IMG/VR virus record: IMGVR_UViG_2551306709_000010
Location: 47,775-67,774 of that record
From: an uncultured virus (IMG/VR IMGVR_UViG_2551306709_000010)
Lineage: Duplodnaviria; Heunggongvirae; Uroviricota; Caudoviricetes
Reading direction: 5' to 3' (one strand)
DNA length: 20,000 nucleotides
In this document: positions 581 to 18,528 of the stretch, piece by piece
Numbering within the stretch: position 1 is the stretch's first letter
How the letters are laid out: every line of letters begins with the position of its first letter
Program-made: the position numbers and the translations under genes
Notes under the pieces: model-generated
What the model was told of the DNA's origin: nothing
What the model saw: only the letters and a program-made list of their open reading frames with translations
Database searches by the model: none

Positions 581-598
581 AATTGGTATATATTTGTA

Positions 599-1648: not shown

Positions 1649-1686
1649 GTAGTTTAGCCTTTTTTATTGTAGAAAACTAAACTGAC
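1649..1686 (+). other. Hairpin directly upstream of the tail-tip gene RBS
   Basis: AGTTTAG (1651-1657) pairs with CTAAACT (1677-1683), with an inner TTTTTTA/TAGAAAA stem. No U-tract follows; the RBS GGGAGGTGA is at 1687-1695. Confidence 0.35.
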
Positions 1687-1699
1687 GGGAGGTGATAGA

Positions 1700-3343
1700 T
1701 TGATATGCATCTACGACAAAAAAACCACAAAAGGAAACTTTGAAACTAATGGTCTTGGAGTTCTAGATGAAGTTATAAGCTGCTTTATTACAGAAGAACT
1801 TAATGGAGATTATGAACTAGAACTTGAATATTCAGCTAAGAGAAGAAAAGCAAAACACCTAGAAGAGTGGAACATACTTAAAGTAGATGGACAGCTTTTT
1901 AGAATTTATAGAGTTGAAAAGATAAGTAAAGAAATTAAGATAATAAAGGTGTGGGCAAAGCATATCTTCTATGACCTTCTGTATTACTTTATTGAAGATA
2001 GTAGAGCTGTAAATTGTAGTATAAAAACTGCTATGGAAAAAGCACTACCGGGAGATGTTAGTACTATATATAAAGTTGATAGTGATATTATTTTAGCTAA
2101 TACTATCTACTTTGTTCAAACCAATCCTGTAGAAGCTATGTTTGGAATAATTAAAAGGTGGAAATGTGGAGAAATTAAAAGAGATAATTTTGATATAAAA
2201 ATTCTAAAGAAAATAGGAAAAGATTCAGGAGTTTTAATAGCTCAAGGTAAAAATATTTTAGGGATTAAATTTAATTCTGATACAAAAGATGTTGTTACAA
2301 AGCTTTATCCAGTAGGTTACAATGGAATAAAACTTACTGAAAAGTATATAAATGTGCCTAACTGGAATAGTGATAAGTATCCACCTTTTCCTATAGTTAA
2401 AAAGATTCAATTCAAAGAAGCTGAGGATGAAGTAACCTTAAGAACTATGGCAAAAGAAAGTATAAAAACCATAGGACTTAGTAAGGTAAATATTGAAGTG
2501 GATTTTATAGAACTTAGTAGGACTAAAGAATATGAAAAATATAAACATCTACAAAAGGTTAATGTAGGAGATAGAGTTATTGTAAGATACAAAGATTTTG
2601 ATATGGATATTAAAGTTCCAGTTATAAAAATTAGGAAAGATGTATTAAGAGGGTTAAATGTAAAAGTAGAACTAGGGCAACCTAAAGATAATATTTTAAA
2701 TCAAATGGATACTTCTGAAATTAAAACAACTGTAGATGAACTTGGAAACAAGGTAGCAGAAACACTAACATCTATGCTTTATTATGCAAATCCAGTAGAG
2801 TTTATAGTTGGTACAAGCAAAATACAACCTGTATATTTGGGGATATCTGCAGTAGCATCAACAAATCTTTCAATGAATCTTTCATTATATTGTATAGCAA
2901 ATGAAGAATGTACACTTACCATTCAAATTCAACTAGATAGAGAAGACATCACTTTTACCCCAAAGCAAAAACTTTTAAAAGGAGATAATGTTGTAGGAAT
3001 ACCTATAGGAATACCACAAGTTAAATGTGGTGCTCACTATTTAGGTATTTTTTTATGCGTTGATACAGGAAGTATGAAAATACCAAAGTTTAATTTGCAA
3101 TGTATGGTGGATGGAAGAAATCTTCAGGGTGGACTAAGTTCAGAGCCACCTCATGCAGAAGTTAAGGAATATCAACCACTTGTTAATATTAATGGTTTGT
3201 ATTTTCAAAAATTACAAGTAGGAAATCAGATCATAACATTTAAAGAACCTATACCAGTTATATTTGGTGAACATATGACTTTAAATAATAATTTATTTAG
3301 GGATAAAGAAATTACAGTAAATTATAATATAAGCTTTAAATAA
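1700..3343 (+). CDS. Phage tail tip/spike protein (Tal, prophage endopeptidase-tail family) with C-terminal extension
   Basis: TTG start after a strong RBS. N-terminal IYD...FETNGLGVL...ITEELNGDYELELEY, QLFRIY, AKHIFYDL, VVTKLYPVG and VNVGDRVIV...VELG motifs; position after Dit. Confidence 0.85.
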   Translation: MICIYDKKTTKGNFETNGLGVLDEVISCFITEELNGDYELELEYSAKRRKAKHLEEWNILKVDGQLFRIYRVEKISKEIKIIKVWAKHIFYDLLYYFIEDSRAVNCSIKTAMEKALPGDVSTIYKVDSDIILANTIYFVQTNPVEAMFGIIKRWKCGEIKRDNFDIKILKKIGKDSGVLIAQGKNILGIKFNSDTKDVVTKLYPVGYNGIKLTEKYINVPNWNSDKYPPFPIVKKIQFKEAEDEVTLRTMAKESIKTIGLSKVNIEVDFIELSRTKEYEKYKHLQKVNVGDRVIVRYKDFDMDIKVPVIKIRKDVLRGLNVKVELGQPKDNILNQMDTSEIKTTVDELGNKVAETLTSMLYYANPVEFIVGTSKIQPVYLGISAVASTNLSMNLSLYCIANEECTLTIQIQLDREDITFTPKQKLLKGDNVVGIPIGIPQVKCGAHYLGIFLCVDTGSMKIPKFNLQCMVDGRNLQGGLSSEPPHAEVKEYQPLVNINGLYFQKLQVGNQIITFKEPIPVIFGEHMTLNNNLFRDKEITVNYNISFK

Positions 3344-3398
3344 AAAATTTCTACCTAATTATGTATATCTAAAATTTAATATGAAAGGGGATGATAAT

Positions 3399-4757
3399 TT
3401 GAGTTTTAGAGAAAGCATATCATATAGTAAAGATTTTTTAACAGGTAGAAAGATTGAAAAAGTAAAGCAGAAATTAATAATGCCTGTTCAAGGAATAGCT
3501 ACAGTAAAACTTTATGATGATTTAACTGGAAAGCAAGTTTATGAGGCAAAAAGTGAAAACAGAATAACAGCAGTTTTAGCAAATTCAGCTTTTTTAGATG
3601 GGTTTTATTATCCAATGCTTGAAAATAATCAAGAATATTTATTGAAAAAGATTTTTACAACCTATCCTTTTAGAGTGTTATCTTTGACTACAGGGGATAT
3701 ACCAGAAGATCCTTATGATTACTTTACATGGGGCAATATAGTAGGTTATGCTGATGCATGGTACACATATAGTGGAGATTCAGAAGTTATAGGTACTGTA
3801 AATAAAGGAGAATGGTCTAGAACTAATAAAGATGGAAAAGGGACAAAGCATTTTGTTTTTGATTTCCCAACTCATGCTGCTAATGGAACATTTAAAAGTA
3901 TTTATTGGTCTGGAGGACAAAGAGATGATTCAAGTGCTCAAAAGCCTAATATAAATGATATGTATAAAAAGAGAATTATAAAAGAAGAAAGGTATTCAAT
4001 ACCCTATTATAATTTATGCACTGATAAAAATAATCTTTATGCTCTAGAACCAAATAAAACTATGGTTAATGTATATGATAAATTTAGTATTGAGAAAAAA
4101 AGTAATGCTTCATTATCCATTGCATCTAAAGCTATAGACTATGATGGAGCAAATTTTTGGGTACTTATAAATGATGGCTCATTTAAAAAACTTGATAAGA
4201 GTTTTAATATAATAGAAAGCTACCCCAAAAGTGCTAAAGTTCCAGATAATTTAGTTTATGGTGTTGAATATTTTGATATTGCTGTTACAGAAAGTAATGT
4301 ATATATAACTTATAAAGGATGTATTAATAGAAATGGAAACAGTATAGATTATAGAAGCTGCATAGTTATGTATGATAAGGATGGTACATTTGTTAAAAAA
4401 GCAGAAGTTTATACGGGAACTAGTAGTAGATTATTTATTACTAGAATTCCTAATAATAAGTTATATGTAATAGTTAATGGTAGAAGTGCTATTCAACTAG
4501 ATATGGATTTAAGCATTTATGGAAGTATAGATTTTGGGTACTATAGTTATTATAGTATAACTTGGGATAAGGATACCCAAACTTTATTTGCTTTTAATGA
4601 TCGTAGTTATGGAAGTTTAAATGAGTATTATATAGTTCCAGCTTCAGCACATACACTTCTTCCAGAACCAGTAACAAAAACACCAGTAAATACAATGAAA
4701 ATTCAATATGATTTCACCTGTGATTATGTTAATCCATTAGACATGCCTACTCATTAG
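3399..4757 (+). CDS. Phage tail-associated protein with central beta-propeller, possible receptor-binding protein
   Basis: ORF track 3381-4757; TTG at 3399 has the better RBS (AAGGGGATG). Lies between Tal and holin. Five blade-like repeats: LCTDKNNLYAL, AIDYDGANFWVL, DIAVTESNVYIT, FITRIPNNKLYVI, SITWDKDTQTLFAF. Confidence 0.6.
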   Translation: MSFRESISYSKDFLTGRKIEKVKQKLIMPVQGIATVKLYDDLTGKQVYEAKSENRITAVLANSAFLDGFYYPMLENNQEYLLKKIFTTYPFRVLSLTTGDIPEDPYDYFTWGNIVGYADAWYTYSGDSEVIGTVNKGEWSRTNKDGKGTKHFVFDFPTHAANGTFKSIYWSGGQRDDSSAQKPNINDMYKKRIIKEERYSIPYYNLCTDKNNLYALEPNKTMVNVYDKFSIEKKSNASLSIASKAIDYDGANFWVLINDGSFKKLDKSFNIIESYPKSAKVPDNLVYGVEYFDIAVTESNVYITYKGCINRNGNSIDYRSCIVMYDKDGTFVKKAEVYTGTSSRLFITRIPNNKLYVIVNGRSAIQLDMDLSIYGSIDFGYYSYYSITWDKDTQTLFAFNDRSYGSLNEYYIVPASAHTLLPEPVTKTPVNTMKIQYDFTCDYVNPLDMPTH

Positions 4758-4771: not shown

Positions 4772-4797
4772 AATTATGTAAGAAGGAGGCGTTGACA

Positions 4798-5205
4798 ATG
4801 AAAAATATTATTGAAATGGTACAAATGATATTTGCATCCATAGGTGGATGGATTGGATGGATGCTTGGAGGAATTGATGGATTCTTATATGCACTTATAG
4901 CTTTTGTTGTTATTGATTATTTAACTGGAATTATGGCTTCAATTCTTGAACAAAAGCTATCTAGCGAAGTAGGGTTTAGAGGAATATTTAAAAAGGTACT
5001 TACTTTTGTTTTGGTAGGAGTAGCTCATATAATTGATTATTACCTTATAGGCAGTGGTAGTGCAATTCGTACCGCTGTTATATTTTTTTATATATCAAAT
5101 GAAGGAATCAGTATCTTAGAAAATACAGCAAAGATAGGACTGCCAATACCAGATAAGTTAAGGAATGTTTTAGAGCAGTTAAAGGAGGAAAAGAAAAATG
5201 GCTAG
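4798..5205 (+). CDS. Phage holin (toxin-secretion/phage lysis holin, TcdE/UtxA-like family)
   Basis: Hydrophobic segments and motifs IDYLTG, LSSEVGFRGIFKK, FFYISNEGISILEN, IGLPIP. AGGAGG at 4784-4789 favours ATG 4798. Overlaps the endolysin start by 8 nt. Confidence 0.92.
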   Translation: MKNIIEMVQMIFASIGGWIGWMLGGIDGFLYALIAFVVIDYLTGIMASILEQKLSSEVGFRGIFKKVLTFVLVGVAHIIDYYLIGSGSAIRTAVIFFYISNEGISILENTAKIGLPIPDKLRNVLEQLKEEKKNG

Positions 5206-5902
5206 ATTATGTTTTGATTATGGGCATGGAGGAGAAGATAGTGGTGCATGTTATAAAGGAAGAAAAGAAAGTAATGATGTATTAAGCTTAGGTAAAGCTG
5301 TAGCTGAAAAGGTCAGAAGGCATGGAGTTACTGTTGATGAAACAAGAACTAATGATATTACAGTTAGTTTAAGGGAAAGAAGCAATTTTGAAAACAGAAA
5401 TAATTATAATTATTTCATATCTTTTCATAGAAATGCTTATAAACCGCAGAAAGCAAATGGTGCTGAAGCTTACACTTATTTAAGTGCAAGTACAAAAGCT
5501 AAAGCACTGGCAGAAAAAATACAAGCTGGACTTGTAGAGATTGGTTTTACTAACAGAGGAGTAAAGACAGCTAATTATCATGTGCTAAGAGAAACTAGAT
5601 GTCCAGCAGTTTTAATTGAAATTGGGTTTATTGATAATAGTGTGGATAATAATATTTTTGATTCTAAAAGAAATGAAATTATTAGAGAAATAGCCAAAGC
5701 TATATTATCTCAGTTAGGCATAGGATATAAAGAAAATAAATCTAATGAAGCAATAGCTCAGCAAAAGCAGCAAGCCACAAGTGGACAAACTCTTTATAGA
5801 GTTATGGCAGGTTCTTATGCTGTTAGAGATAACGCAGAAAAGCAAGTTGAAAAATTAAAGAAGGCTGGATTTGACGCTACAATTATGGTTTTTAATAAGT
5901 AA
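5198..5902 (+). CDS. Endolysin: N-acetylmuramoyl-L-alanine amidase (Amidase_3) with C-terminal SPOR-like cell-wall-binding domain
   Basis: Zn/catalytic motifs DYGHGG, KESND, ISFHRNA, VLIEIGF; C-terminal YRVMAGSY...NAEKQVEKLKKAGFDA. Confidence 0.93.
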   Translation: MARLCFDYGHGGEDSGACYKGRKESNDVLSLGKAVAEKVRRHGVTVDETRTNDITVSLRERSNFENRNNYNYFISFHRNAYKPQKANGAEAYTYLSASTKAKALAEKIQAGLVEIGFTNRGVKTANYHVLRETRCPAVLIEIGFIDNSVDNNIFDSKRNEIIREIAKAILSQLGIGYKENKSNEAIAQQKQQATSGQTLYRVMAGSYAVRDNAEKQVEKLKKAGFDATIMVFNK

Positions 5903-5987: not shown

Positions 5988-7277
5988 GTGCGTGTAAGGA
6001 TTATAGAGCCTACTTTAAAAACTGAAAAAGTAAAGAAAAAAGTATGTGCTTATGCAAGAGTTTCAACAGATAGTCAAAAGCAAGATGAATCATTAGAAAA
6101 TCAAATACAATATTATGAAAATCTTATATTAAATAATCCAGACTATGAGTTTATAGGAGTGTTTGCAGATAGAGGAATAACAGGAACTACTGAAGATAGA
6201 CCGGAATTTCAAAGTATGATGAACTTTTGTAGACAAGGAAAGATAGACTTAATTATTACTAAATCAATATCTAGATTTGCAAGGAATACCGCTATAGTTT
6301 TGGAAACTGTAAGAGAACTGAAATTACTAAACATAGAAGTGAGATTTGAAAAAGAAAATATAAATACTTTGTCAGGGGATGGTGAGTTAATGCTTACTGT
6401 CCTTTCTTCTTTTGTCCAAGAAGAAAGTAAAAATGTAAGTGATAACATCAAATGGAGAATGAGAAAGAAGTTTCAGCAAGGAGAAATGATTATAAATACT
6501 AAAAGATTTTTGGGGTATGACAAGGATGAGTATGGAGATTTAGTGATAAATCCTAAAGAGGCTGAGGTGGTAAAAAGAATTTTTAATGAATACTTAAGTG
6601 GAAAAGGCTGTTTTACAATTGCAAAAGGTCTTAGAGAAGAAGGAGTTCCTACAGTGGCTGGTGGAACATGGAGAGATAGTACTATTTTAAGAATACTAAA
6701 GAATGAGAAGTATAAAGGGGATGCATTACTTCAAAAATATTATACATCAGATCATTTAAGAAAAAAGAAAGTTAGGAATAATGGAGAAGTTGATAGCTAT
6801 TACATTGAAGATAATCATGTGCCAATAGTTTCAAGAGAAACGTGGGAAGCTGTTCAAGAAGAAATTAAAAATAGAGCTAAGGATAAAGGAATTGTTTCAG
6901 GAGATACAAAAAAATATAAGAGAAGATATCCACTAACAGGAATGCTTTACTGCAGTAAATGTAGTTCTACCTTAAGAAGAAGAACATGGAACAGCAAATT
7001 AAATTGTAAAAAGATAGTATGGCAATGTAGTAACTATATTAAAAACGGAAAGAATGCTTGCAGGGGAACTTCAATAGATGATGAGACTATAAGCAAGCTT
7101 AATATAAAAGAAGAAACTGTAGTAAAGGAGGAGATTAGAAATGGCAAGAAGTATTACAGTTATACCAGCAAGAGAACACAGAACCAACATAGCGCAAACA
7201 ATAGAGTCGCACAAAAAGAGAATGGCAGCGTATTGCAGGGTATCAACAGACCAAGCAGAACAGTTATCAAGCTATGA
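5988..7277 (+). CDS. Large serine recombinase 1 (resolvase + recombinase + Zn-ribbon domains)
   Basis: GTG start with AGGAGG. Catalytic YARVST, DRGITGT..DRPEF, TKSISRFARN, LGYD, NEKYKGD, and CSKC...WQC...C zinc ligands. Confidence 0.93.
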   Translation: MRVRIIEPTLKTEKVKKKVCAYARVSTDSQKQDESLENQIQYYENLILNNPDYEFIGVFADRGITGTTEDRPEFQSMMNFCRQGKIDLIITKSISRFARNTAIVLETVRELKLLNIEVRFEKENINTLSGDGELMLTVLSSFVQEESKNVSDNIKWRMRKKFQQGEMIINTKRFLGYDKDEYGDLVINPKEAEVVKRIFNEYLSGKGCFTIAKGLREEGVPTVAGGTWRDSTILRILKNEKYKGDALLQKYYTSDHLRKKKVRNNGEVDSYYIEDNHVPIVSRETWEAVQEEIKNRAKDKGIVSGDTKKYKRRYPLTGMLYCSKCSSTLRRRTWNSKLNCKKIVWQCSNYIKNGKNACRGTSIDDETISKLNIKEETVVKEEIRNGKKYYSYTSKRTQNQHSANNRVAQKENGSVLQGINRPSRTVIKL

Positions 7278-8553
7278 AGCACAGGTAAATTACTATACTA
7301 ATTTTATAAATAATAGTCCTGAATATGAAATGGTAAAAGTCTATGCTGATGAAGGAATTTCAGGAACTAATACTAAAAAGAGAGAACAATTTAATGAAAT
7401 GATTAAGGATTGTAAGTTAGGAAAAATAGATATAATTATAACAAAATCTATATCAAGGTTTGCTCGTAATACTTTAGATTGCTTAAATTATGTAAGAATG
7501 CTTAAAGAACTTGGCATTGGAGTTATTTTTGAAAAGGAAAATATAAACACATTAGATGGTAAAGGAGAGGTTTTAATTTCCATTCTCGCAAGCTTGGCTC
7601 AAGACGAAAGCAGAAGCATCAGTGAAAATTCAACATGGGGAATAAGAAGAAGATTTGAACAAGGAAAGCTTCATATAAACCACAAAAAATTTTTAGGATA
7701 TGATAAAGATGAAGAAGGTAATCTTATAATCAATGAGAAACAAGCCAAAATTGTAAGAAGAATTTATAAAGACTACTTAGATGGAAAAGGTACAAATAGG
7801 ATAGCAAAGGAACTTGAAGAAAAAGGAATTAAAGGCTGGAATGGAAAGGCTAAATGGTATGAAAGCACTATAAGAGGGATATTAACAAATGAAAAATATA
7901 AAGGAGATGCGCTACTGCAAAAGACTTATACAGTAGATTTTCTTACTAAGAAAAGGGCAGAAAACAATGGAGAAGTTCCACAGTATTATGTGGAAGAAAG
8001 CCATCCAGCAATTATAGATAAAGAGATGCATGCCGCAGTTCAGCTTGAGATGGAGAGAAGAAAAACCTTTGCTAAAGAACATGGCATTGTAAAAGTAGAT
8101 TATGCTACAGTAACCAATCCTTTTGCAGGAAAAGCTATTTGTGGGCACTGCGGCAGTGTTTTTGGGAGAAAGGTTTGGAATTCTACAAATGAAATACGTA
8201 GGAGAATTGTTTGGAGATGTAATAAAAGATATATAGAAAAAGGTAAGAAAGGCTGCAATAATAAGCATATAGATGATAAGGTTTTATACCAAGCTTTTAT
8301 AGATACTTTTAATGCTATGATTGAAAATAAAGATTACTTCATGGAGAAGTGGAAGGAACATTTAAAAAGTGAGAATGTTTTAGTTAGATATAAGGCAAAG
8401 CAGTTCGTGGGAATTTTAAAAAATGCAAAACCAATAAAACAATTTGATGAGGATTTGTTTTTTAGGATAGTAGAGAAGATGACGGTGTTTGATGGAGAGA
8501 AGATTATTGTAAGTTTGCTTGATGGGACGGAGATAGAAGTTATAATTGAATAA
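7141..8553 (+). CDS. Large serine recombinase 2
   Basis: Own RBS AAGGAGGAG just upstream of the ATG. Catalytic YCRVST, DEGISGT, TKSISRFARN, LGYD, NEKYKGD, CGHC...WRC...C. Overlaps recombinase 1 by 137 nt in another frame. Confidence 0.95.
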   Translation: MARSITVIPAREHRTNIAQTIESHKKRMAAYCRVSTDQAEQLSSYEAQVNYYTNFINNSPEYEMVKVYADEGISGTNTKKREQFNEMIKDCKLGKIDIIITKSISRFARNTLDCLNYVRMLKELGIGVIFEKENINTLDGKGEVLISILASLAQDESRSISENSTWGIRRRFEQGKLHINHKKFLGYDKDEEGNLIINEKQAKIVRRIYKDYLDGKGTNRIAKELEEKGIKGWNGKAKWYESTIRGILTNEKYKGDALLQKTYTVDFLTKKRAENNGEVPQYYVEESHPAIIDKEMHAAVQLEMERRKTFAKEHGIVKVDYATVTNPFAGKAICGHCGSVFGRKVWNSTNEIRRRIVWRCNKRYIEKGKKGCNNKHIDDKVLYQAFIDTFNAMIENKDYFMEKWKEHLKSENVLVRYKAKQFVGILKNAKPIKQFDEDLFFRIVEKMTVFDGEKIIVSLLDGTEIEVIIE

Positions 8554-8563
8554 TAAAATAAGA

Positions 8564-8604
8564 GGCTGATTGTGATAATTTTTATCATAATCAGTCATTT
8601 TTTT
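8564..8604 (+). terminator. Intrinsic terminator after the recombinases
   Basis: GGCTGATTGTGATAA-ttt-TTATCATAATCAGTC 15-bp stem (two G-U pairs), followed by A and a T7 run. Confidence 0.8.
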
Positions 8605-8696
8605 CTTTATTAAATAGAAAAAGGAATAAAATAATGAGTATAATTGAAATAGAAAGATGTTTCATAATAATTTTAAGAAGAAATGGAGGGGAGAAA

Positions 8697-10355
8697 ATGC
8701 TGAAATTGGAGGAGTATATTTCAAAGAGAAAAAAGGAGGATAGAATTGATGAATTTGACTTTAAGAAACATTCAGAGAATATGGCGAGTGTTATAAAATA
8801 TGTAACAGATTATTTTAATAATTATTTAAATTTAGAGGATTACGATTATAAGCAAACAAAAATACAACAAACAGGAGAGAAGTTTAAGAAGGATATACAA
8901 AAAATATATCCAGAAACATATGACTATATAATCTCATACTATTTAGATAATAAAAAACGATTGGATAAATATATTGCTAAAGCTTATGAAGAAATTAAAG
9001 ACAGTGAGTTGTTTTATAAAGAAGAGGATTATGATAGGGTTGCTGAGTATGTTATTGAAAAAAAATTAAATGTTCCTATGAATGAAACATTATGTCATAA
9101 ATTATCTGTGATGGCACGAGAATATAAAAAACATGAAAATGAATGTCCATCTATTTCTGAAATGAAGGAACTTGATAATGCACTAGTGGATTGGGTAAAG
9201 TGTGTATTTAGAAAATATAATGTGAATTTATTGAATTATGCAAGTGAGATAGCATATCATTACTACGAAACTTATGTGGTTACAGAATATGATAGAGATA
9301 CAGATACTTTTTATCATATAAATAAGTACGACTATAGATATCAAGAAAATCCATTTGATATTAATACTATTTATGCTAGAAATGAGCATAGGGAGTTTAT
9401 TAAGGATAATAAAGGTGAACTTGAAATGCTAATAATGTATTGTTGGTTAAATGATGAAATAAGAGATTTAGATTATTGGCCAGAATATGTTCAACTTTGC
9501 ATTGATTCAAATAGGGTAAAGTTATCAAAAAGAAAGCGTGTATTTATACCAGTTCAGATTTCTAATATTAATTACCCACCTGAAATAGTAACTTCAGGTA
9601 AATATATTGAAACAGTTAATGGTTTAATTGAGAAAGATCCAGGAAAAGATTATATATTAAGGATAGCTTATCGAAAGAACAATGATGAAATATGGAAAGA
9701 TAAAATGTTATTAGAATCTATAATTAAGAATATACAAAGTAGCTTTAAAAGATACGGAACTCCTAGTCTTGTAGAATTTCAATCCCCATATAAAACAGTA
9801 GGATATAATAAGGAAAAGTTTTTTGATAGTTATCAGGTATTCGAGAAAGGTTTACGTAGATTTACCAATACTAAAATAGCTATAATAAATGGAAATATGA
9901 AAGGAAGTAAAGGAAAAGAATTTTTATTTTCAAATATAGATGACATTATTAAATTACATAATACCTGCAAACAATTAAATCTAAGATTAAAACTATCAGT
10001 GGATTTTACTGATAGTAATAGAAAAAATATTTTAAAGGAAAAAATTGAAGAAACAATTAATGCTTTATCTTCAATGAGAAGTTTTATAGTGGGAATTCAT
10101 TTTAATAGTATTGATTCTTGGAGTAATTATAGGGGAATATATGATGAAGACAGTAAACATGCATATATGAGTGTCCATGAATATCCAACAGTATCAACTT
10201 TTATGCAGGGGCTGGCTACTATTGTACAGGATAGTAAAGTACGATATTTAATTCCAGAGAAAGTTAAAAATGAAGATGTACTTGAAGGTTTAATAGATAT
10301 ACTGTATCGTGCTGGGTTTAGTTTTAAAAAAGGTGGTAATGTTAATGAAAAGTAG
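8697..10355 (+). CDS. Hypothetical protein: helical N-terminal domain plus putative degenerate TIM-barrel (AP endonuclease 2/xylose isomerase-like) C-terminal domain
   Basis: ORF track 8634-10355; ATG 8697 follows RBS GGAGGGGAG. The C-terminal half alternates short beta strands (VEFQSP, IAIING, LSVDF, VGIHF, YLIPE) with helices. Confidence 0.6.
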   Translation: MLKLEEYISKRKKEDRIDEFDFKKHSENMASVIKYVTDYFNNYLNLEDYDYKQTKIQQTGEKFKKDIQKIYPETYDYIISYYLDNKKRLDKYIAKAYEEIKDSELFYKEEDYDRVAEYVIEKKLNVPMNETLCHKLSVMAREYKKHENECPSISEMKELDNALVDWVKCVFRKYNVNLLNYASEIAYHYYETYVVTEYDRDTDTFYHINKYDYRYQENPFDINTIYARNEHREFIKDNKGELEMLIMYCWLNDEIRDLDYWPEYVQLCIDSNRVKLSKRKRVFIPVQISNINYPPEIVTSGKYIETVNGLIEKDPGKDYILRIAYRKNNDEIWKDKMLLESIIKNIQSSFKRYGTPSLVEFQSPYKTVGYNKEKFFDSYQVFEKGLRRFTNTKIAIINGNMKGSKGKEFLFSNIDDIIKLHNTCKQLNLRLKLSVDFTDSNRKNILKEKIEETINALSSMRSFIVGIHFNSIDSWSNYRGIYDEDSKHAYMSVHEYPTVSTFMQGLATIVQDSKVRYLIPEKVKNEDVLEGLIDILYRAGFSFKKGGNVNEK

Positions 10356-11319
10356 TGGAGCAATAGATATATATGATGAAACTGAATTTTACTCATGGGT
10401 TAAAATGATTAATGTTACATTAGCAGAAAAGAATTATTGCAATATGATTGAAGAGCATAGTAGTGAGATGAATAATAGGAAGAATATAAATAAAGACAAG
10501 TATTTAGAAAACCTACCTTTTAGTATAAGATGGAAGCTGAAAGGGGAAATTTACACTTACTCAAATGTAAGAAAAACAGTTGTATTAGATATAAGTACTT
10601 CAGAAAAAACAAGAGATAAAGCATATAGATTTATGAGTACTTTTATAAGTTGCATTTCTAAAATTGGTGGCGGAGTATATGTTGAGAATATGCAGAACGA
10701 TGACAATACAATGTTTACATTATTAGAAAGTAGGTACAAATGTAGCTTATATGAAAAGCAAGTTAAGTTAAGGGATAAGATAAAAATAGGGGAAAGAAAA
10801 ATGAGACCTTTATATGACTTGGAATATACTGGTGATTTGTGTTTTGAAGTCTTTGGTGAAGAAATAAATAAAAAGGATACTTGGGAATTATTACAGACTA
10901 TAGAGTTTTATAAATCAGATACTATAGAAAGTAAATTGATAGATTTGTTTTATAAACTAAGAGAAGACGCAATATCTAAAAAGATTATTATAGATCAAGA
11001 GATGGCAAAGCAACAACAAGAGAGGGAAAAAGAAATTAAACAATGGGAAGAAGAGAAGATACGTGAAGATCAAGCCCATAAAGAAAAAGAAAAATTACTA
11101 AAGAAACAAAAAATGCAAGAAAAAATAAAAAACCATATTGATAAATGGGAGAATATTAATAAAGTCTTAGAGTATGTTAATGATTTACGTCATATGTCAG
11201 GTATCAGTGATAATGAAAGAAAACTAATTTTAAAGTATTGTGATTATGTTGAAAAGACCTATAGTAAATCAGAATTTTATAAAGAAGTTTTAGAATTTTC
11301 GCAAAAATCAGAATTCTAA
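10345..11319 (+). CDS. Hypothetical protein with C-terminal charged coiled coil
   Basis: ATG 10345 follows RBS AGGTGG (10331-10336) and overlaps the upstream stop by 11 nt. E/K/Q-rich helix QQQEREKEIKQWEEEKIRE...; function unknown. Confidence 0.7.
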   Translation: MKSSGAIDIYDETEFYSWVKMINVTLAEKNYCNMIEEHSSEMNNRKNINKDKYLENLPFSIRWKLKGEIYTYSNVRKTVVLDISTSEKTRDKAYRFMSTFISCISKIGGGVYVENMQNDDNTMFTLLESRYKCSLYEKQVKLRDKIKIGERKMRPLYDLEYTGDLCFEVFGEEINKKDTWELLQTIEFYKSDTIESKLIDLFYKLREDAISKKIIIDQEMAKQQQEREKEIKQWEEEKIREDQAHKEKEKLLKKQKMQEKIKNHIDKWENINKVLEYVNDLRHMSGISDNERKLILKYCDYVEKTYSKSEFYKEVLEFSQKSEF

Positions 11320-11332
11320 AGGAGAGATACAA

Positions 11333-12424
11333 ATGAAAATAACTATAAAAGATACTAATTTAGTTGATAAAGAGTTAGACAAAAAGATTCGTAAACAATT
11401 AAAAGATAAAGTTCAAGAATTTGATGAAAACAGAAGATATACCATGGATTTACAATTTCCCGAAGATTTTATTATATATGAGTCTGAAATAAATTCATAT
11501 GAGATACCAGAAGAGTCTTTGCCACTATATCAAAGGGGAAAAGAATTAAAAGGCAAAGAGAAAATGTATGAATTATTAAGTTATCGAATTGATACTGTTA
11601 TAAATATAGTTAAGGAATATAGAATAAGATTAGGGAATTGTGGTATTAAAGGAATGCCATTTATGGAATTTAATAAAATAGAACTATGTTTTTCAGAGGA
11701 AGATGTGCAGTTAGATAATAAATGCAAACGAAAAAAGGATAAGGAAATCACGGTTATTACAGTAATGCCAAGTTTTTCAGGGTTTATTAAAAATCTTGAA
11801 TCTGCTCTCAAGGATATTGAAAATAGAATAGAAACAGAATTAGAGAATGTATTTGATGATAAAAAAGAATACGATAAATATAAATCACTTGTTGATAAAT
11901 TTGAGTTATATAATATATTAAGTGATTTGAAAAAAGAATATGGGGAAATGTGGATATATTCAAGGGAACATAAATCAGAATTGAAAAAGAAGTTTATAGA
12001 GACAATAGAAATTAAAGCTGGAATTGTTTCAGATGATATATTAAAAGAGCAGATATTACAACCACTTGAGTTTAAAACAGTTGTAATATGTGAAATTCCT
12101 GTTTGTAAAATAATTAAGAAAAATACTGGAGTAAATAAGTGTATTGGGCATATTAGATTATTAACAAATGGAAGAATAATTAATGTTAAGTATCAACCAC
12201 ATAGTAAGCCATATGTAATACCAGATGAAGTTTTTGAAGAATGCATTGTTAGTGTCACATCTGAAAACAACAATAAAAAATTACTTAAGATAATAGAAGA
12301 ACTTGTTAATAAGGTTGATGAAATCTGCCAAGAGTTTGGATATGTACTTGAAAAGGATATAATTCACAATGTAATAGGATATATGGATATAAAGAGTGTT
12401 ATAAAAAAAGTTAGAGAAGCATAA
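11333..12424 (+). CDS. Hypothetical protein (363 aa)
   Basis: Long ORF with RBS AAGGAG at 11319-11324, starting 13 nt after the previous stop; no motif recognised. Confidence 0.7.
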   Translation: MKITIKDTNLVDKELDKKIRKQLKDKVQEFDENRRYTMDLQFPEDFIIYESEINSYEIPEESLPLYQRGKELKGKEKMYELLSYRIDTVINIVKEYRIRLGNCGIKGMPFMEFNKIELCFSEEDVQLDNKCKRKKDKEITVITVMPSFSGFIKNLESALKDIENRIETELENVFDDKKEYDKYKSLVDKFELYNILSDLKKEYGEMWIYSREHKSELKKKFIETIEIKAGIVSDDILKEQILQPLEFKTVVICEIPVCKIIKKNTGVNKCIGHIRLLTNGRIINVKYQPHSKPYVIPDEVFEECIVSVTSENNNKKLLKIIEELVNKVDEICQEFGYVLEKDIIHNVIGYMDIKSVIKKVREA

Positions 12425-12461
12425 AGAAGAATATGCTAAGTGTACATGAGGTAAGTTAAAA

Positions 12462-12752
12462 ATGAGCAAAGATAAAGCATTGTTTTGCAAAAAAAATTTA
12501 CTTAAATATATGGAAGAATTTTTAGATAATAAAATTACTCAATAGGAATACTATGAACTGATGAAAAGATGTTATTCAGAGCATGAAGATTTATTAAAAA
12601 AGTATTATGCTAATTTTAATGAAAAATTCATGGAAGCAGTTCCAGATGCTTGCTTGTATTATATAGATGAACCAGGATTAGAGGATAGTATTAAGAGAGA
12701 ATTATCTAGAAATGAAATTATTAGTTTATATAAAGTTTTAATTGAACTATAA
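12462..12752 (+). pseudogene. Small helical protein (colicin-D/Cdi immunity-like) interrupted by an in-frame TAG
   Basis: ATG 12462 with RBS GAGGT is in frame with the 63-aa ORF at 12561: MSKDKALFCKKNLLKYMEEFLDNKITQ*EYYELMKRCY...; the only internal stop is TAG at 12543-12545. Confidence 0.6.
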
Positions 12753-12817
12753 TTAAATTATTTTTTGACTTCTTATTCAATTTGAGTGATGAATACTCAA
12801 AAAGGAGTGATAAGGTA

Positions 12818-13327
12818 ATGACAGATGAACAAAAAGAAAGAATTAAGCAGATGCGTCAACAAGGTATAGGATATAAAAAGATAGCAAATCAAATCGGCTT
12901 ATCAAGAGATTCTGTAAGGGGATATTGTAGGAGACATGGTTTAGATGGCTTAGGTGAAGAGATAGCAATGCAGCATAAGATATTAATGCAAGAAGAATTC
13001 ATATATGTACTTTGTCTTCAATGTGGCAAAGAAATCAAGCAGAATGCTACTGGGCGAAAGAGAAAATACTGCAGTATGGAATGTAAGAGAGTGTGGGACA
13101 AAACACATCGTAAAGCATTTGATCTAGAATGTGCATACTGTGGAAAAAAGTTTAAGTCTTTAGGTATTAAGCATCTTAAGTATTGTAGTAGAGATTGCTA
13201 CATTAAAGATAGATTTTGGAGAAAAGAAGATGCTCAAGAAATTGCTGATAAAATTCTAGAGTTTAAAAAGGTTAACAAATTACCTAAGTGGCTTAAAAAA
13301 TTATTGCTTGGAGATGAAGAAGAATAG
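12818..13327 (+). CDS. HTH plus tandem Cys-rich zinc-finger protein (family often auto-annotated 'RNA polymerase subunit sigma-70/24'), probable DNA-binding regulator
   Basis: RBS AAGGAGTGA before ATG 12818. HTH GIGYKKIANQIGLSRDSVRGYCRR, then CLQC...YCSMEC and CAYC...YCSRDC. Confidence 0.75.
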   Translation: MTDEQKERIKQMRQQGIGYKKIANQIGLSRDSVRGYCRRHGLDGLGEEIAMQHKILMQEEFIYVLCLQCGKEIKQNATGRKRKYCSMECKRVWDKTHRKAFDLECAYCGKKFKSLGIKHLKYCSRDCYIKDRFWRKEDAQEIADKILEFKKVNKLPKWLKKLLLGDEEE

Positions 13328-13333
13328 GTTTTT

Positions 13334-13460
13334 AGGGGGGCGAAGCTAGAGTATTTTTCAATATGCTAAATTAGAAAAGATAGCAACAGGGGTATTGCAA
13401 ATCGAGTATTTGCCCCAATTTTAGCCTTACCCCCCTTACTATAAAAAGACCTAGAGGGTC
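13334..13460 (+). other. GC-rich fold-back region next to the att junction
   Basis: 13334-13352 pairs with 13418-13436 (G6:C6 core, 3 G-U pairs, 2 mismatches). Inner GCAAAT-cgagt-ATTTGC hairpin; GACC-tagag-GGTC at 13448-13460. Confidence 0.45.
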
Positions 13461-13501
13461 ACTAAGAAATATTTGCCAAATTGTATTTAGAGCTTGTCTA
13501 C

Positions 13502-13546
13502 ACACACATTGAGTGCGTAGTAAAGCTTAAAAGGAAACACAAGTAG
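13502..13546 (+). other. rlmD: Displaced 3' end of rlmD/rumA (23S rRNA m5U methyltransferase): probable attachment junction
   Basis: ACA CAC ATT GAG TGC GTA GTA AAG CTT AAA AGG AAA CAC AAG TAG = THIECVVKLKRKHK*. This matches the RlmD/TrmA C-terminal (DMFPxT)xH(V/I)E(C/T)V motif, but the upstream DMFP is missing. Confidence 0.75.
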
Positions 13547-13665
13547 AAGCATTGGTATAACTGGGGTTAGAGAATAGTAAAAAGGGGATATGTTTCTTGA
13601 TATGGGGTTAGGAAACAGTTCTTTTGTCAAAAATTATAGAAAATATAAAAAAATAGGGTTATAAT

Positions 13666-13703
13666 ATAATTGCATTGGTGTAGGCTGATGCAATTATTTT
13701 TTT
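13666..13703 (+). terminator. Terminator-like hairpin upstream of hsdR
   Basis: ATAATTGCATTGGT (13666-13679) pairs with GCTGATGCAATTAT (13684-13697), followed by a T run to 13703. Confidence 0.6.
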
Positions 13704-13749
13704 AGTTATTTGTTTTGTTATACAATTATGTGGATTGGGGATGAGAAAA

Positions 13750-16700
13750 TTGAAATCTAATTTTTGTTTTTTAGAAGAAAGATGGCCTTTGCTTACTTCC
13801 ATTGGAAGTACAGCTGAAAAGTATATTTATACAGATTCAAATTCTTGCTTGATAAAATTGGGTCAATTTGCTGAAGCGATTGTACATCTTATGTTTAAGT
13901 TAGATGGCATTAATGAGCCAGATAAAGAAAATACAAATGATAATAGGATAAAAATTCTAAAAAAAGAAGGATTAATTACTAAAGATATAGATGACATTCT
14001 TTTTGCTCTAAGAAAAACTCGTAATGTAGCTGTACATGATCTATACGAATCTATAGAAAAATCAAAGATACTTGTAGAATTTGCGTATAAGCTTGGGGTA
14101 TGGTTTATGCAAACTTATGGTGATTGGAATTATGAACCTAAAAAGTTTGTTATACCTGAGGATACAAGTAAAGAAATAGATTTTGAAACAATTATTAAAG
14201 TACAGGAAGAAAAGATAAAGGAACTTAATGAAAAACTTCAAAGTAAATCAGCAAATTTTAGTGAAGATAATATATTAAATGGAAAAGTAATTTCAATAGC
14301 TGATAGAAGAAAAAGAAGTTATTCATCTGCTGACAAAATAAATCTTTCAGAAAAGGAAACACGTTATTTAATAGATGAACAACTAAGAAAAGTTGGTTGG
14401 GAAGTTGATACTTTAAATATTAGGTATTCAAAAGGAACACGACCACAAAAAGGAAGGAATTTAGCTATAGCAGAATGGCCAACTGATTCAACTGTTGGAA
14501 AAAGAGGAGCTGCTGACTATGTTTTATTTGTTGGTACACAATTGGTAGGGGTTATTGAAGCAAAACGTCATTTTACTGATATACCTTCAGTTATTGATTA
14601 TCAATGTAAAGATTACGCAAGGAATATAAAAAAGGAAGATTCTAAATATCTTATTGGAAAATGGGAAGAATATTCTGTACCATTTTTGTTTGGAACTAAT
14701 GGAAGGAAGTATTTAAAACAGCTTGAAACTAAATCAGGTATATGGTTTTTAGATGCTCGTAATTCTGCCAATATTCCAAAAGCACAACAAGGATGGCCAA
14801 GCCCAGATGGACTAATGGAATTGCTTGAAAAAGATATTAATAAAGCAGATGAAGAATTAAAAACTACAGGCTATGAACTTTTAACTGATAAAGATGGTCT
14901 TAATCTTAGAGAGTATCAAGTTAATGCCATTAAAGCAGTTGAAAAGGCAATTATTGATGGTGAAAGAAATGATAAAGGAGAAGTTGTTGATGGAAAGCAA
15001 AAGGTGCTTATATCCATGGCAACAGGAACTGGAAAAACAAGGACCATTTTAGGAATGATTTATCGTTTTATAATCACCAAAAGATTTAAAAGGATATTGT
15101 TCTTAGTAGATCGTACTTCACTTGGTGAGCAAGCACAAGATGTATTCAAAGAAGTAAAACTTGAAGATTTACAAACTCTTGATGAAATTTATAATATAAA
15201 GAAACTTGAAGATAAAGAAATAGATAAAGAGACAGTAATACATGTTGCTACAGTACAAAGTATGGTTAAAAGGATTATGTATAATGAAGGCGAAACAATG
15301 CCAGCAGTTACTGATTATGATTTGGTAATTATTGATGAAGCTCATAGAGGCTATATTCTAGATAAGGAAATGAGTGAAGATGAGCTTTTATATAGAAACC
15401 AAGATGATTATGTAAGTAAATACAAGACTGTAATCGAATATTTTGATGCAGTAAAAATAGCACTTACTGCAACACCTGCTCTTCATACTACTCAGATATT
15501 TGGTAAACCTGTTTTTAACTATTCTTATAGGGAAGCAGTAATAGATGGCTATTTAGTTGATCATGATGTACCACATAAGCTCGGCACAAAACTTAGCACA
15601 GAAGGAATTCACTATAATAAAGGAGAAACAGTTGCAATATATGATCCTGTTACGGGAGAAATTACCAATAGTAATGAATTAGAAGATGAATTAAACTTTG
15701 ATATTGAAACATTTAATAGACGGGTTATAACAGAACCATTTAATAGAACTGTCTTAGAAGAAATATCACGATATATCAATCCAGAAGGTGATGGAAAAAC
15801 ATTAATATATGCAGTTGATGATTCCCATGCTGATCTTATAGTAAAAATATTAAAAGAAATATATGAGGAATATGGTGTTGATAACAATGCTATAATGAAA
15901 ATTACAGGTTCAGTTGGCGGGGGAAATAAGAAAAAGGTTTTAGAGGCTATAAAGAAATTTAAAAATGAAAAATATCCAAGTGTGGTAGTTACAGTAGATC
16001 TTCTAACAACTGGTATTGATATTCCAGAAATAAATACATTGGTATTTATGCGTAGAGTAAAATCAAGAATTCTTTATGAACAAATGAAAGGACGTGCTAC
16101 ACGTCTTTGTCCTAAAATAGGAAAAACACATTTTGAAATATTTGATCCTGTTGGTGTTTGGGAATCCATAGAGCCATTAAGTACAATGAAACCAGTAGTA
16201 GCTAATAAAGCTGCTACCTTTGATGATTTAATTAATGGACTTGAAGTATTAGAAACAGTGGAGCAAAAGAAGAATGCTATAGATATAATAATAGGTAAGA
16301 TTCAAAGAAAGAAGAGAAATCTAAATGAAAAAGATTTAGAACACTTTGAAAGTCTTTCGGGTGGTAAAAATCCTAATGAGTTTATAAAAGAGATACAGTC
16401 TATTGGAATAGAAAAGGCTGAAGAACTTATTTTAAAAAACAAAAAGTTATTTGAAATGTTAAATGAAGAGAATTATGGTACAGTAAAACCTGTTGTAATT
16501 TCATTTAAAAAAGATGAACTTGTATATCACACAAGAGGTTATGGTAAAGCAGAAAAACCAGAAGATTATATAGATGAATTTAAAAGGTTTATAGAAGAAA
16601 ATAAAGATAAAATAGATGCTTTAAATATTGTGTGTACAAGACCAAAGGAACTTACACGTAGCACATTGAAAAATTTAAAATTAGAACTTGACAGATATGA

Positions 16701-17064
16701 ATTTACTGAAGTAAATTTAAATACAGCATGGAAAGAACTTAGTAATGAGGATATTACAGCAGATATTATTACTTTTATCCGTAAACTTGCTGTAGGATTA
16801 CCACTTGTTAGTCATGAAGAAAGAATAAAAAATGCTGTTAGTAAGCTAAAGAAAAATCATGATTTTAGTAAAATAGAATTAGATTGGCTAAATAGAATTG
16901 AAAAACAACTATTAAATGATAGTATATTAAATGAGGAAACTTTTAATACAGGTGCTTTTCAAACAAAAGGCGGTTATAAATTTATAAATAAAATATTTAG
17001 GAACAAACTAGATGAAATCATATTAGAGATTAATGAATATCTATATGAGGATTGGAGCGCATAA
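13750..17064 (+). CDS. hsdR: Type I restriction enzyme R subunit (EcoKI-like)
   Basis: Nuclease ADYVLF...IEAK and QxxxY (QCKDY), Walker A MATGTGKT, DEAH box IIDEAHRG, LTATP, LLTTGID, QMKGRATR. Start is TTG 13750 or ATG 13741. Confidence 0.96.
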   Translation: MKSNFCFLEERWPLLTSIGSTAEKYIYTDSNSCLIKLGQFAEAIVHLMFKLDGINEPDKENTNDNRIKILKKEGLITKDIDDILFALRKTRNVAVHDLYESIEKSKILVEFAYKLGVWFMQTYGDWNYEPKKFVIPEDTSKEIDFETIIKVQEEKIKELNEKLQSKSANFSEDNILNGKVISIADRRKRSYSSADKINLSEKETRYLIDEQLRKVGWEVDTLNIRYSKGTRPQKGRNLAIAEWPTDSTVGKRGAADYVLFVGTQLVGVIEAKRHFTDIPSVIDYQCKDYARNIKKEDSKYLIGKWEEYSVPFLFGTNGRKYLKQLETKSGIWFLDARNSANIPKAQQGWPSPDGLMELLEKDINKADEELKTTGYELLTDKDGLNLREYQVNAIKAVEKAIIDGERNDKGEVVDGKQKVLISMATGTGKTRTILGMIYRFIITKRFKRILFLVDRTSLGEQAQDVFKEVKLEDLQTLDEIYNIKKLEDKEIDKETVIHVATVQSMVKRIMYNEGETMPAVTDYDLVIIDEAHRGYILDKEMSEDELLYRNQDDYVSKYKTVIEYFDAVKIALTATPALHTTQIFGKPVFNYSYREAVIDGYLVDHDVPHKLGTKLSTEGIHYNKGETVAIYDPVTGEITNSNELEDELNFDIETFNRRVITEPFNRTVLEEISRYINPEGDGKTLIYAVDDSHADLIVKILKEIYEEYGVDNNAIMKITGSVGGGNKKKVLEAIKKFKNEKYPSVVVTVDLLTTGIDIPEINTLVFMRRVKSRILYEQMKGRATRLCPKIGKTHFEIFDPVGVWESIEPLSTMKPVVANKAATFDDLINGLEVLETVEQKKNAIDIIIGKIQRKKRNLNEKDLEHFESLSGGKNPNEFIKEIQSIGIEKAEELILKNKKLFEMLNEENYGTVKPVVISFKKDELVYHTRGYGKAEKPEDYIDEFKRFIEENKDKIDALNIVCTRPKELTRSTLKNLKLELDRYEFTEVNLNTAWKELSNEDITADIITFIRKLAVGLPLVSHEERIKNAVSKLKKNHDFSKIELDWLNRIEKQLLNDSILNEETFNTGAFQTKGGYKFINKIFRNKLDEIILEINEYLYEDWSA

Positions 17065-17067: not shown

Positions 17068-18528
17068 ATGAATAATCAAGAAATAGTGTCAAAACTTTGG
17101 AATTTATGTAATGTACTTCGTGATGATGGAATTACTTATCACCAGTATGTAACTGAGCTTACATATATATTATTCCTTAAGATGATGAAGGAAACAGGAA
17201 ATGAAAAAAACATTACAGATAGCATAGTTAAAAGAAAAAAGGATAAGTCATTAGAGATAGATACTTACAGTTGGGATACGCTTGTTAAAAAGCAAGGACT
17301 TGAACTTAAACGATATTATAATAATATCTTAGGTGAATTTGGTGAAAACTGTAAAGGAAGAATAAGAGAAATATATTTAGGTGCAAGATCTAATATTGAA
17401 GAACCTAAAAACCTTGAAAAAATAATAAAATCTATAGATGATCTTGATTGGTATTCAGCAAAAGAAGAAGGGCTTGGAAATCTTTATGAAGGACTTTTGG
17501 AGAAAAATGCTAATGAGAAGAAATCAGGTGCAGGTCAGTATTTTACTCCACGTGTATTAATAGATGTAATGGTAAAGCTAGTTAATCCACAGGCAGGAGA
17601 ACTTTGCAATGATCCAGCTTGTGGAACTTTTGGATTTATGATAGCTGCTGATAAGCACATAAAAGAAAATACTGATGATCTTTTTGCATTAGAATTTGAG
17701 GAGCAAGAATTTCAGAAAAGAAAAGCTTTTACAGGATGTGAATTAGTTCATGATACCCATAGACTTGCGCTAATGAATGCAATGCTACATGATATTGAGG
17801 GAGAAATAATTTTAGGGGATACTCTTTCAAATGTTGGCAAGAGTATGAAAGGTTTTGATGTAGTGCTTACAAATCCACCATTTGGAACTAAAAAAGGTGG
17901 AGAACGTGCTACAAGAGATGATTTAACTTATCTTAGCTCAAATAAACAATTAAACTTTTTACAGCATATATATAGATCACTTAAATCAGACAATAGGGCA
18001 AGGGCAGCAGTTGTATTGCCAGACAATGTGCTTTTTGCAGATGGTGATGGAACAAATATTCGTGCTGATTTAATGGATAAATGTAATCTGCATACAATAT
18101 TACGTTTACCTACAGGGATTTTTTATGCCCAAGGAGTAAAAACAAATGTACTATTCTTTACTCGTGGAAAAACTGAAAGAAATAATACTAAAGAAGTCTG
18201 GATATACGACATGCGTACTAATATGCCGAGTTTCGGAAAAACAAATTCATTAAAAGAAGAACATTTTTATGGCTTTATAAAAGCTTACACAGTTGAAGAT
18301 AGAACAAAGATACAAGATGAACGTTTCTCAGTGTTTACTAGAGAGCAGATAAAAGAAAAAAATGATAACCTTGATTTAGGCTTAATTCGTGACGATAGTG
18401 TACTTGATTATGAAGATTTACAAGATCCAATAGAAAGTGGAGAAGAAATAGCAGCTCAGCTTGAAGAAGCTATGGATTTAATTATGAGTGTGGTTAAAGA
18501 ACTTAAGAATTTAGGTGGTGACAAGTAA
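17068..18528 (+). CDS. hsdM: Type I restriction-modification methyltransferase subunit (m6A)
   Basis: LWNLCNVLRDDG, GQYFTPR, SAM-binding DPACGTFGF, catalytic NPPF. Confidence 0.97.
   Translation: MNNQEIVSKLWNLCNVLRDDGITYHQYVTELTYILFLKMMKETGNEKNITDSIVKRKKDKSLEIDTYSWDTLVKKQGLELKRYYNNILGEFGENCKGRIREIYLGARSNIEEPKNLEKIIKSIDDLDWYSAKEEGLGNLYEGLLEKNANEKKSGAGQYFTPRVLIDVMVKLVNPQAGELCNDPACGTFGFMIAADKHIKENTDDLFALEFEEQEFQKRKAFTGCELVHDTHRLALMNAMLHDIEGEIILGDTLSNVGKSMKGFDVVLTNPPFGTKKGGERATRDDLTYLSSNKQLNFLQHIYRSLKSDNRARAAVVLPDNVLFADGDGTNIRADLMDKCNLHTILRLPTGIFYAQGVKTNVLFFTRGKTERNNTKEVWIYDMRTNMPSFGKTNSLKEEHFYGFIKAYTVEDRTKIQDERFSVFTREQIKEKNDNLDLGLIRDDSVLDYEDLQDPIESGEEIAAQLEEAMDLIMSVVKELKNLGGDK

Follow-up and report, generated by a model that had tools for sequence, protein, structure and literature searches.

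The stretch of DNA analysed here (the window, 20,000 nucleotides) makes up the final 20 kb of a 67.8-kb record of an uncultured virus of the Caudoviricetes, IMGVR_UViG_2551306709_000010, classed as a provirus by IMG/VR, and it holds an operon of three genes designated A, B and C. On balance, this operon, which lies at the recombinase end of a Clostridium prophage, is probably an accessory module expressed from the lysogen, most likely an undescribed system of defence against phages or other mobile elements, a prediction drawn from comparative sequence analysis. The three genes are:

8697-10355, + strand: gene A, 552 amino acids (aa), with a predicted helical N-domain (residues 1 to about 281) and a predicted triosephosphate isomerase (TIM) barrel (residues 282-542)
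10345-11319, + strand: gene B, 324 aa, with a predicted alpha/beta domain, an 89-residue helix and a helical hairpin
11333-12424, + strand: gene C, 363 aa, an accessory that joins the A-B pair in some loci only, without a family match

The longest open reading frames (ORFs) of the first two genes begin further upstream (8634..10355 for A and 10309..11319 for B); the starts at ATG 8697 and ATG 10345 fit the lengths of the homologues, which are mostly 543-557 aa for A and 321-325 aa for B. A purine-rich ribosome-binding site (RBS) lies 6-9 nucleotides (nt) before each start (GGAGG for 8697, AAGGTGG for 10345 and AAGGAGAG for 11333). An earlier sequence-only reading of the window had described three ORFs of 552, 324 and 363 aa, each with an RBS and joined by an 11-nt overlap and a 13-nt gap; both descriptions are borne out, A and B sharing 10345-10355 and B and C being separated by 11320-11332.

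Conservation of the A-B pair and distribution of C

Clusters of homologues of near length numbered 87 for A (98-34% identity), 32 for B and 21 for C. A scan of one genome per species gave 39 genome loci of A (numbered with the prefix L, as are the other loci below), among them loci from Clostridium, Tissierella, Anaerovorax, Lachnospiraceae, Acetobacterium, Paenibacillus, Oceanobacillus, Virgibacillus, Enterococcus, Pectinatus, Syntrophomonas, Pelotomaculum, Desulfosporosinus and one metagenome-assembled genome labelled as an archaeon. As determined by tblastn and profile searches, B lies directly 3' of A in 35 of the 39, across Clostridia, Bacilli and Negativicutes; the four loci without B comprise three in which the contig ends (L021, L026 and L037) and one with a truncated A (L018). 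The junction is tight. Of the 33 loci that have B in the ORF call, 32 show the stop of A and the start of B overlapping or separated by 11 nt at most; the exception, L039, has a broken A. Identity of A across the A-B loci, which span several bacterial classes, is 33-83%. The distribution is patchy, A in its fused form (N-domain plus barrel) being present in 3 of 401 sampled Bacillota genomes.

C is far less regular. A gene of its family follows B in 8 of the 32 genome loci that have at least 1.1 kb beyond B (five full-length genes, two short forms of about 235 aa and one remnant of 52 aa), and in L029 a C start is present at the contig end. Among the viral contigs with A, five of nine also hold C, and a search of the viral loci with the C profile found three copies, all three on contigs that also hold A. 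The order varies as well, being C-A-B in a Syntrophomonadaceae phage (L173:7192-7941) and A-B-(388-aa gene)-C in a viral contig (L171:11967-13061). Because B adjoins A so consistently and C does so in a minority of genome loci, A and B form a conserved, translationally coupled core, and C is a facultative accessory so far not seen alone. The three-gene unit proposed earlier is upheld for A and B; its third member is optional, in genomes and viruses alike.

In one Paenibacillus genome (L015 11651-14324; L123/L126) A occurs twice on the same contig, at a distance of 21 kb, and an IS1595-type transposase gene interrupts the B gene of the first copy.

Defence genes around the A-B pair

The genomic context was scanned in 36 loci through 135 neighbouring ORFs with a minimum length of 100 aa, up to four upstream and up to five downstream of A; 11 of the original 146 flanking ORFs were left out of the scan, and L010, L013 and L026 had no ORFs of this kind. 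At least one flanking PADLOC match (E<=1e-15) was present in 26 of the 36 loci, and in 23 of these 26 a protein specific to a defence system was matched; in L008, L030 and L035 the matches were to generic models only (methyltransferase, TniQ or reverse-transcriptase). Counted by ORF, with the table read by eye, 48 of the 135 had a match at this threshold. The systems found include Type I restriction-modification (R-M) in three loci in addition to the window, Type II R-M, Lamassu (L006, L028), Wadjet (L016, L021, L022), a GmrSD-like system (L025, L034) and Gabija, directly downstream in L012, as well as an MkoC-like helicase, helicase-DUF2290, a ThsB-like TIR protein, PD-Lambda-5, dGTPase, DarTG and AbiD. 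Candidate systems of PADLOC were also represented (PDC-M22, RmrA/PDC-S70, PDC-S11, PDC-S50/S02 and PDC-S47). The order of the window, A-B-C followed by Type I R-M, is repeated in L004, and a plasmid copy of A adjoins genes for a RES-domain protein, an AAA ATPase and a helicase together with three tyrosine recombinase genes.

Loci of genes related to the N-domain of A alone (N-only genes, described below) were dropped as a neutral control because they proved defence-rich themselves, and distant regions were therefore used: 12 regions lying 80-100 kb away on the same contigs, with ORFs chosen by the same rule, five of them from genomes with fused A and seven from genomes with an N-only relative. 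Matches were found in 2 of the 12 control regions and in 2 of their 108 ORFs, both generic-looking (ShosA/DprA-like and RtcR-like). The difference between 26 of 36 loci and 2 of 12 control regions was significant (Fisher p=0.0015). The gene-neighbourhood check that the sequence-only reading had proposed thus came out in favour of an anti-phage role, with A and B homologues that co-occur and defence genes that are enriched around them.

Family assignment

In Pfam, PADLOC-DB 2.0.0, PHROGs v4 and NCBIfam 20, proteins A, B and C gave chance-level matches only. Among the 5027 models of PADLOC-DB v2.0.0, none matched A, B, C or the small neighbouring gene product (12818-13327) at E<=0.1, the sole match having an E value of 0.31, and 26 relatives had no PADLOC match at E<=1e-3. 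Gene A had no Pfam match even at E<=1, and 35 relatives of B likewise yielded chance-level matches in the family scans. Sequence searches of the PDB with profiles of A, B, C and the family of stand-alone barrels (TIM-only, see below) returned nothing meaningful, and the ESM Atlas gave no usable match for C or for the N-domain of A. The source names of all relatives are 'hypothetical' or 'uncharacterized', except that a single relative of B bears an automatically assigned 'PH domain-containing' label. Closest among named proteins are Clostridium tetani entries called 'hypothetical protein', of which almost identical copies are filed under C. sporogenes and C. botulinum. Word searches of the literature found no system of this kind described, a type of search that cannot prove absence. 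As far as these searches reach, A, B and C are uncharted protein families outside any catalogued defence system, in line with the earlier statement that no family could be named for them, which the Pfam, PHROGs and NCBIfam scans and a negative PADLOC check all sustain.

Some C. tetani records list a shortened B (260-313 aa) or C (286-314 aa), which suggests that in certain strains the gene has decayed or its start has been called elsewhere.

Protein A is a fusion of two modules

The structure model of A, built from a 40-sequence alignment, had a mean predicted local distance difference test (pLDDT) score of 87.7 and a predicted template-modelling score (pTM) of 0.80. In this model, residues 1-281 consist of helices and one beta hairpin, and residues 282-542 form a (beta/alpha)8 barrel that can be superposed on members of the xylose isomerase-like/apurinic-apyrimidinic (AP) endonuclease 2 superfamily, with matches to sugar epimerases and AP endonucleases. 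By sequence, A had no match to a Pfam AP_endonuc_2-type profile at E<=1 and 26 relatives had none at E<=1e-3, and none of the PDB chains matched by profile at E<=10 belonged to this superfamily. The fold thus settles the superfamily of the barrel and not its activity. The fold-search lists for A were filled by the TIM barrel, and the N-domain, helical in the model, belongs to a new family. Its motifs include a YRY..NPF loop, GELEML and DYWPEY.

A profile search with A, covering 1.84 billion representatives, found 402 relatives at E<=1e-3, of which 236 reached E<=1e-10 and 50 reached E<=1e-30. Many relatives of about 270-300 aa match only profile positions 1-266, and many others of about 285-310 aa match only positions ~325-545. 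Relatives that match either the N-terminal or the barrel part show A to be a fusion of two evolutionarily independent modules. Profile comparison by hhalign linked the N-domain to the N-only family with a probability of 100% (E 1.9e-50, 269 columns) and the barrel to the TIM-only family with 99.7% (E 1e-26, 264 columns).

The TIM-only proteins strongly conserve the motifs SLHTE, EIHPP, ENR, LDxPQ, HxWGK, HxGDL and RYFVPEVNS, whose residues presumably resemble the His/Glu/Asp metal ligands of endonuclease IV (Endo IV). Among the 40 aligned A sequences, E360 is kept in 40, N398 in 39, D436 in 36, H468 in 35, D512 in 40 and R516 in 39; the HxGD loop falls within a low-confidence stretch. The His of SLHTE is replaced by R322 (H in 1/40), that of EIHPP by Q362 and other residues (H in 1/40), the Glu of ENR by I/V397 (E in none of the 40, I or V in 38) and the last Glu, of PEV, by the variable residue 521 (E in 12/40, D in 6/40). 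With about half of the motif positions replaced, the barrel of A, which descends from the stand-alone family, is a diverged version, possibly non-catalytic or single-metal.

The N-only genes (about 275 aa, L141-L150) are solitary and have no conserved partner. Their neighbours in 6-7 of 10 loci are CBASS (cyclase plus 2TM effector), Type I R-M, a ThsB-like TIR protein, PDC-S31, PDC-S28 or a Type II methylase. Because N-only genes adjoin defence genes in this proportion of loci, the N-domain is in its own right a defence-island module, and the N-only family is a possible single-gene defence candidate.

The TIM-only family (about 290 aa, L043-L122) has no Pfam or PADLOC match and occurs in a fixed cluster consisting of a DUF2797 protein, proteins of about 220 and 261 aa, the TIM-only protein, a HIT-family protein and a protein of about 109 aa (for example L086:3553-7647 and L078:3635-7631). 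In P0281 and P0286 the TIM-only protein is fused to DUF2797, and other copies adjoin HerA/NurA, Type ISP R-M, helicases or Wadjet. The idea of a split system was rejected: none of the 80 TIM-only loci held an ORF matching the N-only or B profiles, and none of the 10 N-only loci held one matching the B or TIM profiles.

Proteins B and C

The model of B (pLDDT 85.2) has a short helical N-terminal part, a helix at 87-106 and strands up to residue 188, this helix and the strands together forming an alpha/beta domain. These are followed by an uninterrupted helix of 89 residues (194-282), 57% of which are E, K, R, Q or D, and by a helical hairpin. The whole model gave no fold match; the alpha/beta domain was not searched on its own. 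An additional N-terminal module, some 60 residues long and ending in a GYWAK motif (alignment columns 1-90; for example L024:11631-11900), is present in roughly one in three of the aligned relatives of B, giving long forms of about 430-455 aa. This module has no Pfam match; because it is helix-rich and basic, its sequence suggests DNA binding.

For C, the family libraries, the ESM Atlas and the PDB gave no informative match, and profile-profile comparison linked it to neither A nor B. What the short forms share with C is the N-terminal ~230 residues; the cysteines of C show no conservation.

Position of the operon in the prophage

All large ORFs of the window lie on the + strand. The features around the operon are:

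2-4757, + strand: tail/baseplate-like genes
4792-5205, + strand: holin-like gene
5198-5902, + strand: amidase-like gene
5988-7277, + strand: large serine recombinase gene 1 (Resolvase, Recombinase and Zn_ribbon_recom domains)
7141-8553, + strand: large serine recombinase gene 2 (Resolvase, Recombinase and Zn_ribbon_recom domains)
8564..8606, + strand: terminator-like hairpin and T run (stem 8564-8596, 15 pairs, 4 G-C, loop 3) closing the recombinase genes
8615..8644, + strand: promoter-like site TAGAAA-18-TATAAT (10/12 matches, TATAAT at 8639-8644), a weak feature
12818-13327, + strand: small helix-turn-helix (HTH) and Cys-rich gene (phrog_2308, E 6.5e-37, match from residue 13)
13735-17064, + strand: hsdR (ResIII, EcoEI_R_C and HSDR_N domains)
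17068-18528, + strand: hsdM, read from the translation (NPPF motif, size)
18528 to window end, + strand: hsdS, read from the translation (size); the record ends inside this gene

Four terminator-like sites were found in 8300-13800, compared with 0.7 +/- 1.0 in shuffles. One is the hairpin at 8564-8596 with its T tail, so that a terminator-like site does lie where a strong terminator had been claimed earlier; with the coupled genes behind it, the module is set apart from the recombinases, as had also been proposed. Promoter-like sites numbered 42 against 37 +/- 6.1 expected and are not enriched in this A+T-rich DNA. The TATAAT that had been pointed out is a real hexamer at 8639-8644; since such sites are no commoner than chance, it carries little weight by itself. 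The same scan found no terminator-like site between the stop of C (12424) and 13666, and read-through into the 12818-13327 gene is therefore possible. The likely start of that gene is ATG 12818, which has an RBS, rather than TTG 12782, and relatives of this phrog_2308 gene adjoin the operon in L003, L168 and L170. The interval 12425-12817 holds short ORFs only and a promoter-like site at 12725-12753; the matching place in L003 is occupied by a 96-aa ORF. Further downstream, the Type I R-M neighbour that had been recognized is confirmed by the domains of hsdR and by the translations of hsdM and hsdS.

The tandem recombinase genes overlap by 137 nt and are the sole large serine recombinase pair in the record; several viral loci and one GenBank phage record have such a tandem pair too. 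The GenBank record runs endolysin, holin, two recombinases, then A and B, and several viral loci repeat the window's order of tail, holin, amidase, recombinase and A-B. In six of nine viral loci a large serine recombinase lies one to three ORFs upstream of A (L172 is a seventh, with the gene further upstream), and in most of the viral loci the contig ends within a few kb after B. Among the genome loci, a large serine recombinase gene is likewise placed one to three ORFs upstream of A in six of 39 (L003, L005, L006, L007, L033 and L034). Other copies of A lie beside a Tn7-like TnsD (L030), beside tyrosine recombinases on the plasmid, or in chromosomal islands. The slot between recombinase and attachment (att) site in which the operon had been placed is therefore partly supported: the recombinase is upstream in the window and in most viral loci, but the att site was not located and most genome loci have no recombinase nearby.

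A C. tetani genome comparison (PMC5553647) describes five sites with prophages that have serine recombinases at their flanks; one of the sites is within sigK. The 67.8-kb record holds no sigma-factor fragment, and the idea of a sigK-intervening element was left unsupported.

These positions bear on the view that A and B maintain or control serine-recombinase elements, as an addiction pair acting by post-segregational killing or as regulators of excision and integration, the second half of the earlier candidate. Their place right after the large serine recombinases in the window and the loci just listed is what this view would predict, and their tight coupling recalls toxin-antitoxin pairs. It is weakened by the 33 of 39 genome loci that have no recombinase next to A, and obligate co-occurrence with a cognate recombinase was not found in the genome or the viral set. 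Copies of A-B sit in element settings as varied as TnsD, plasmid tyrosine recombinases and chromosomal islands, so that the module is not tied to one recombinase type. A (552 aa) and B (324 aa) also greatly exceed in size the known directionality factors and the classical type II antitoxins. We regard a role in element control as unlikely.

Interpretation

Under the defence reading, the module would be expressed from the lysogen and would, somewhat more probably than otherwise, protect it against phage or other invading DNA. A and B would form a putative complex. Because only the N-domain occurs as a solitary defence-island gene, it is taken as the functional core of A, and it would act as the family-defining sensor or effector. 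The barrel may bind nucleic acid or a small ligand, or may keep a one-metal site (E360, D436, H468, D512); a classical AP endonuclease would be less probable than either. The long charged helix of B could serve as a dimerising or spacing scaffold, and the extra HTH-like N-terminal module of many B relatives may help to anchor the complex on DNA. On infection the complex would become active, so that phage DNA is blocked or the infected cell aborted. As a joint mechanism, this combination of an A-B complex, an N-domain core, a binding barrel and B as scaffold or tether is tentative and held with low confidence. A more far-reaching proposal, which we put forward as speculation, is a new class of immunity in which the part-degenerate Endo IV-like barrel would sense phage nucleic acid, the helical N-domain would be the effector, B would act as a ruler and C would tune specificity. 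In that proposal the N-domain effector could also work alone, as in the N-only family of about 275 aa, and C-like accessories could be exchanged.

Several observations weigh against a defence role. The association with defence genes is correlative; the control was small (12 regions) and came partly from genomes other than those of the test loci, and loci of related genomes are not phylogenetically independent. Counter-defence genes and other morons also sit at prophage ends and in islands. Four motif residues of the TIM-only family, His in SLHTE and EIHPP and Glu in ENR and PEV, are missing from A. A clear catalytic or toxic domain was not found, and the main weakness is that no effector activity was identified. 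RNA-library contigs (X1 and X2, from one study) hold only a deleted relative of 905 nt, which joins sequences corresponding to window 8944-9001, 9996-10118, 10356-11035 and 12159-12219 and so has three internal deletions. The intact locus was present in two runs of unrecorded type at about 98% identity, and in one run of unrecorded type it lies on a single 4374-nt contig with 75 differences. The RNA-library and run contigs are no evidence on transcription.

A second alternative is counter-defence or competition between elements, in which the proteins would neutralise host immunity or exclude rival elements. Carriage by prophages next to host-type defence systems agrees with this, as anti-defence genes can also accumulate beside such systems, and an enzyme fold that has partly degenerated might serve as a decoy or binder. 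Many copies, however, lie in chromosomal islands whose 10-kb flanks have no phage genes, and the proteins are large and conserved across classes, whereas most anti-defence proteins are small and fast-evolving. We consider such a role quite improbable. An ordinary metabolic operon, with A as a sugar isomerase or epimerase, is very improbable: A has no Pfam match at E<=1, the position of the ENR Glu is I or V in 38/40, transporter or kinase partners are not conserved, and the context is mobile and defence-rich. That three unrelated genes accreted by chance at a prophage end, as the sequence-only reading had allowed, would fit the absence of C from most loci and the wide variation of the genes after B, but it is rejected for A and B by their adjacency in 35/39 loci and, with C found only beside A-B, is extremely improbable for the operon as a whole.

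If the operon protects against phage, it would be a defence system built from families absent from current catalogues. Two more uncharted families would stand beside it, the solitary N-domain gene and the stand-alone TIM barrel, whose nuclease-like motif set is complete. The operon would further reveal which lysogen-benefit cargo clostridial large-serine-recombinase prophages carry beside R-M systems, with relevance to phage therapy and to how readily clostridia can be manipulated genetically.

Comparison with known systems

The barrels of the xylose isomerase-like/AP endonuclease 2 group, such as Endo IV, the African swine fever virus (ASFV) AP endonuclease and the ketose 3-epimerases, are kin of A at the level of fold and for half of the protein only. 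A TIM-barrel subunit in a defence operon has a reported parallel in QatABCD, said to have been described by Gao 2020 with a TatD-type TIM-barrel nuclease, an ATPase and a QueC-like protein. Like A-B, QatABCD is a defence-island operon that uses a TIM-barrel hydrolase-like subunit; unlike it, A belongs to another TIM-barrel superfamily, and neither an ATPase nor a QueC-like protein was found here.

AbiG is a two-gene abortive infection system (AbiGi/AbiGii) of lactococci. It resembles A-B in being a two-gene operon of medium-sized proteins from Firmicutes with an unexplained mechanism. One relative of A (P0069, 1 of 87 clusters) carries a precomputed PF10899 label, not reproduced for the window's A, which had no PF10899 or PADLOC Abi match even at E<=1, and B was likewise without match. 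In a preprint (10.1101/2024.07.30.605764), PF10899 is named AbiGi and grouped with ADP-ribosyltransferase-like folds. The model of the N-domain of A, in contrast, consists almost wholly of helices.

Doron 2018, Gao 2020 and Millman 2022 reportedly defined candidate systems by their association with defence islands. No component of A-B-C matches any of the 5027 models of PADLOC-DB v2.0.0, in which it differs from the systems catalogued there; like the PDC-type candidates of that database, A-B is a conserved small operon, patchy in distribution, on mobile elements and beside known systems. Defence cargo is also said to lie next to the integrase at the ends of P2/P4 prophages and satellites (Rousset 2022). 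The window departs from these hotspots in its large serine recombinases, its Firmicutes setting and an att end that was not located, and it resembles them in carrying cargo between the integration gene and the end of the element, together with an R-M system.

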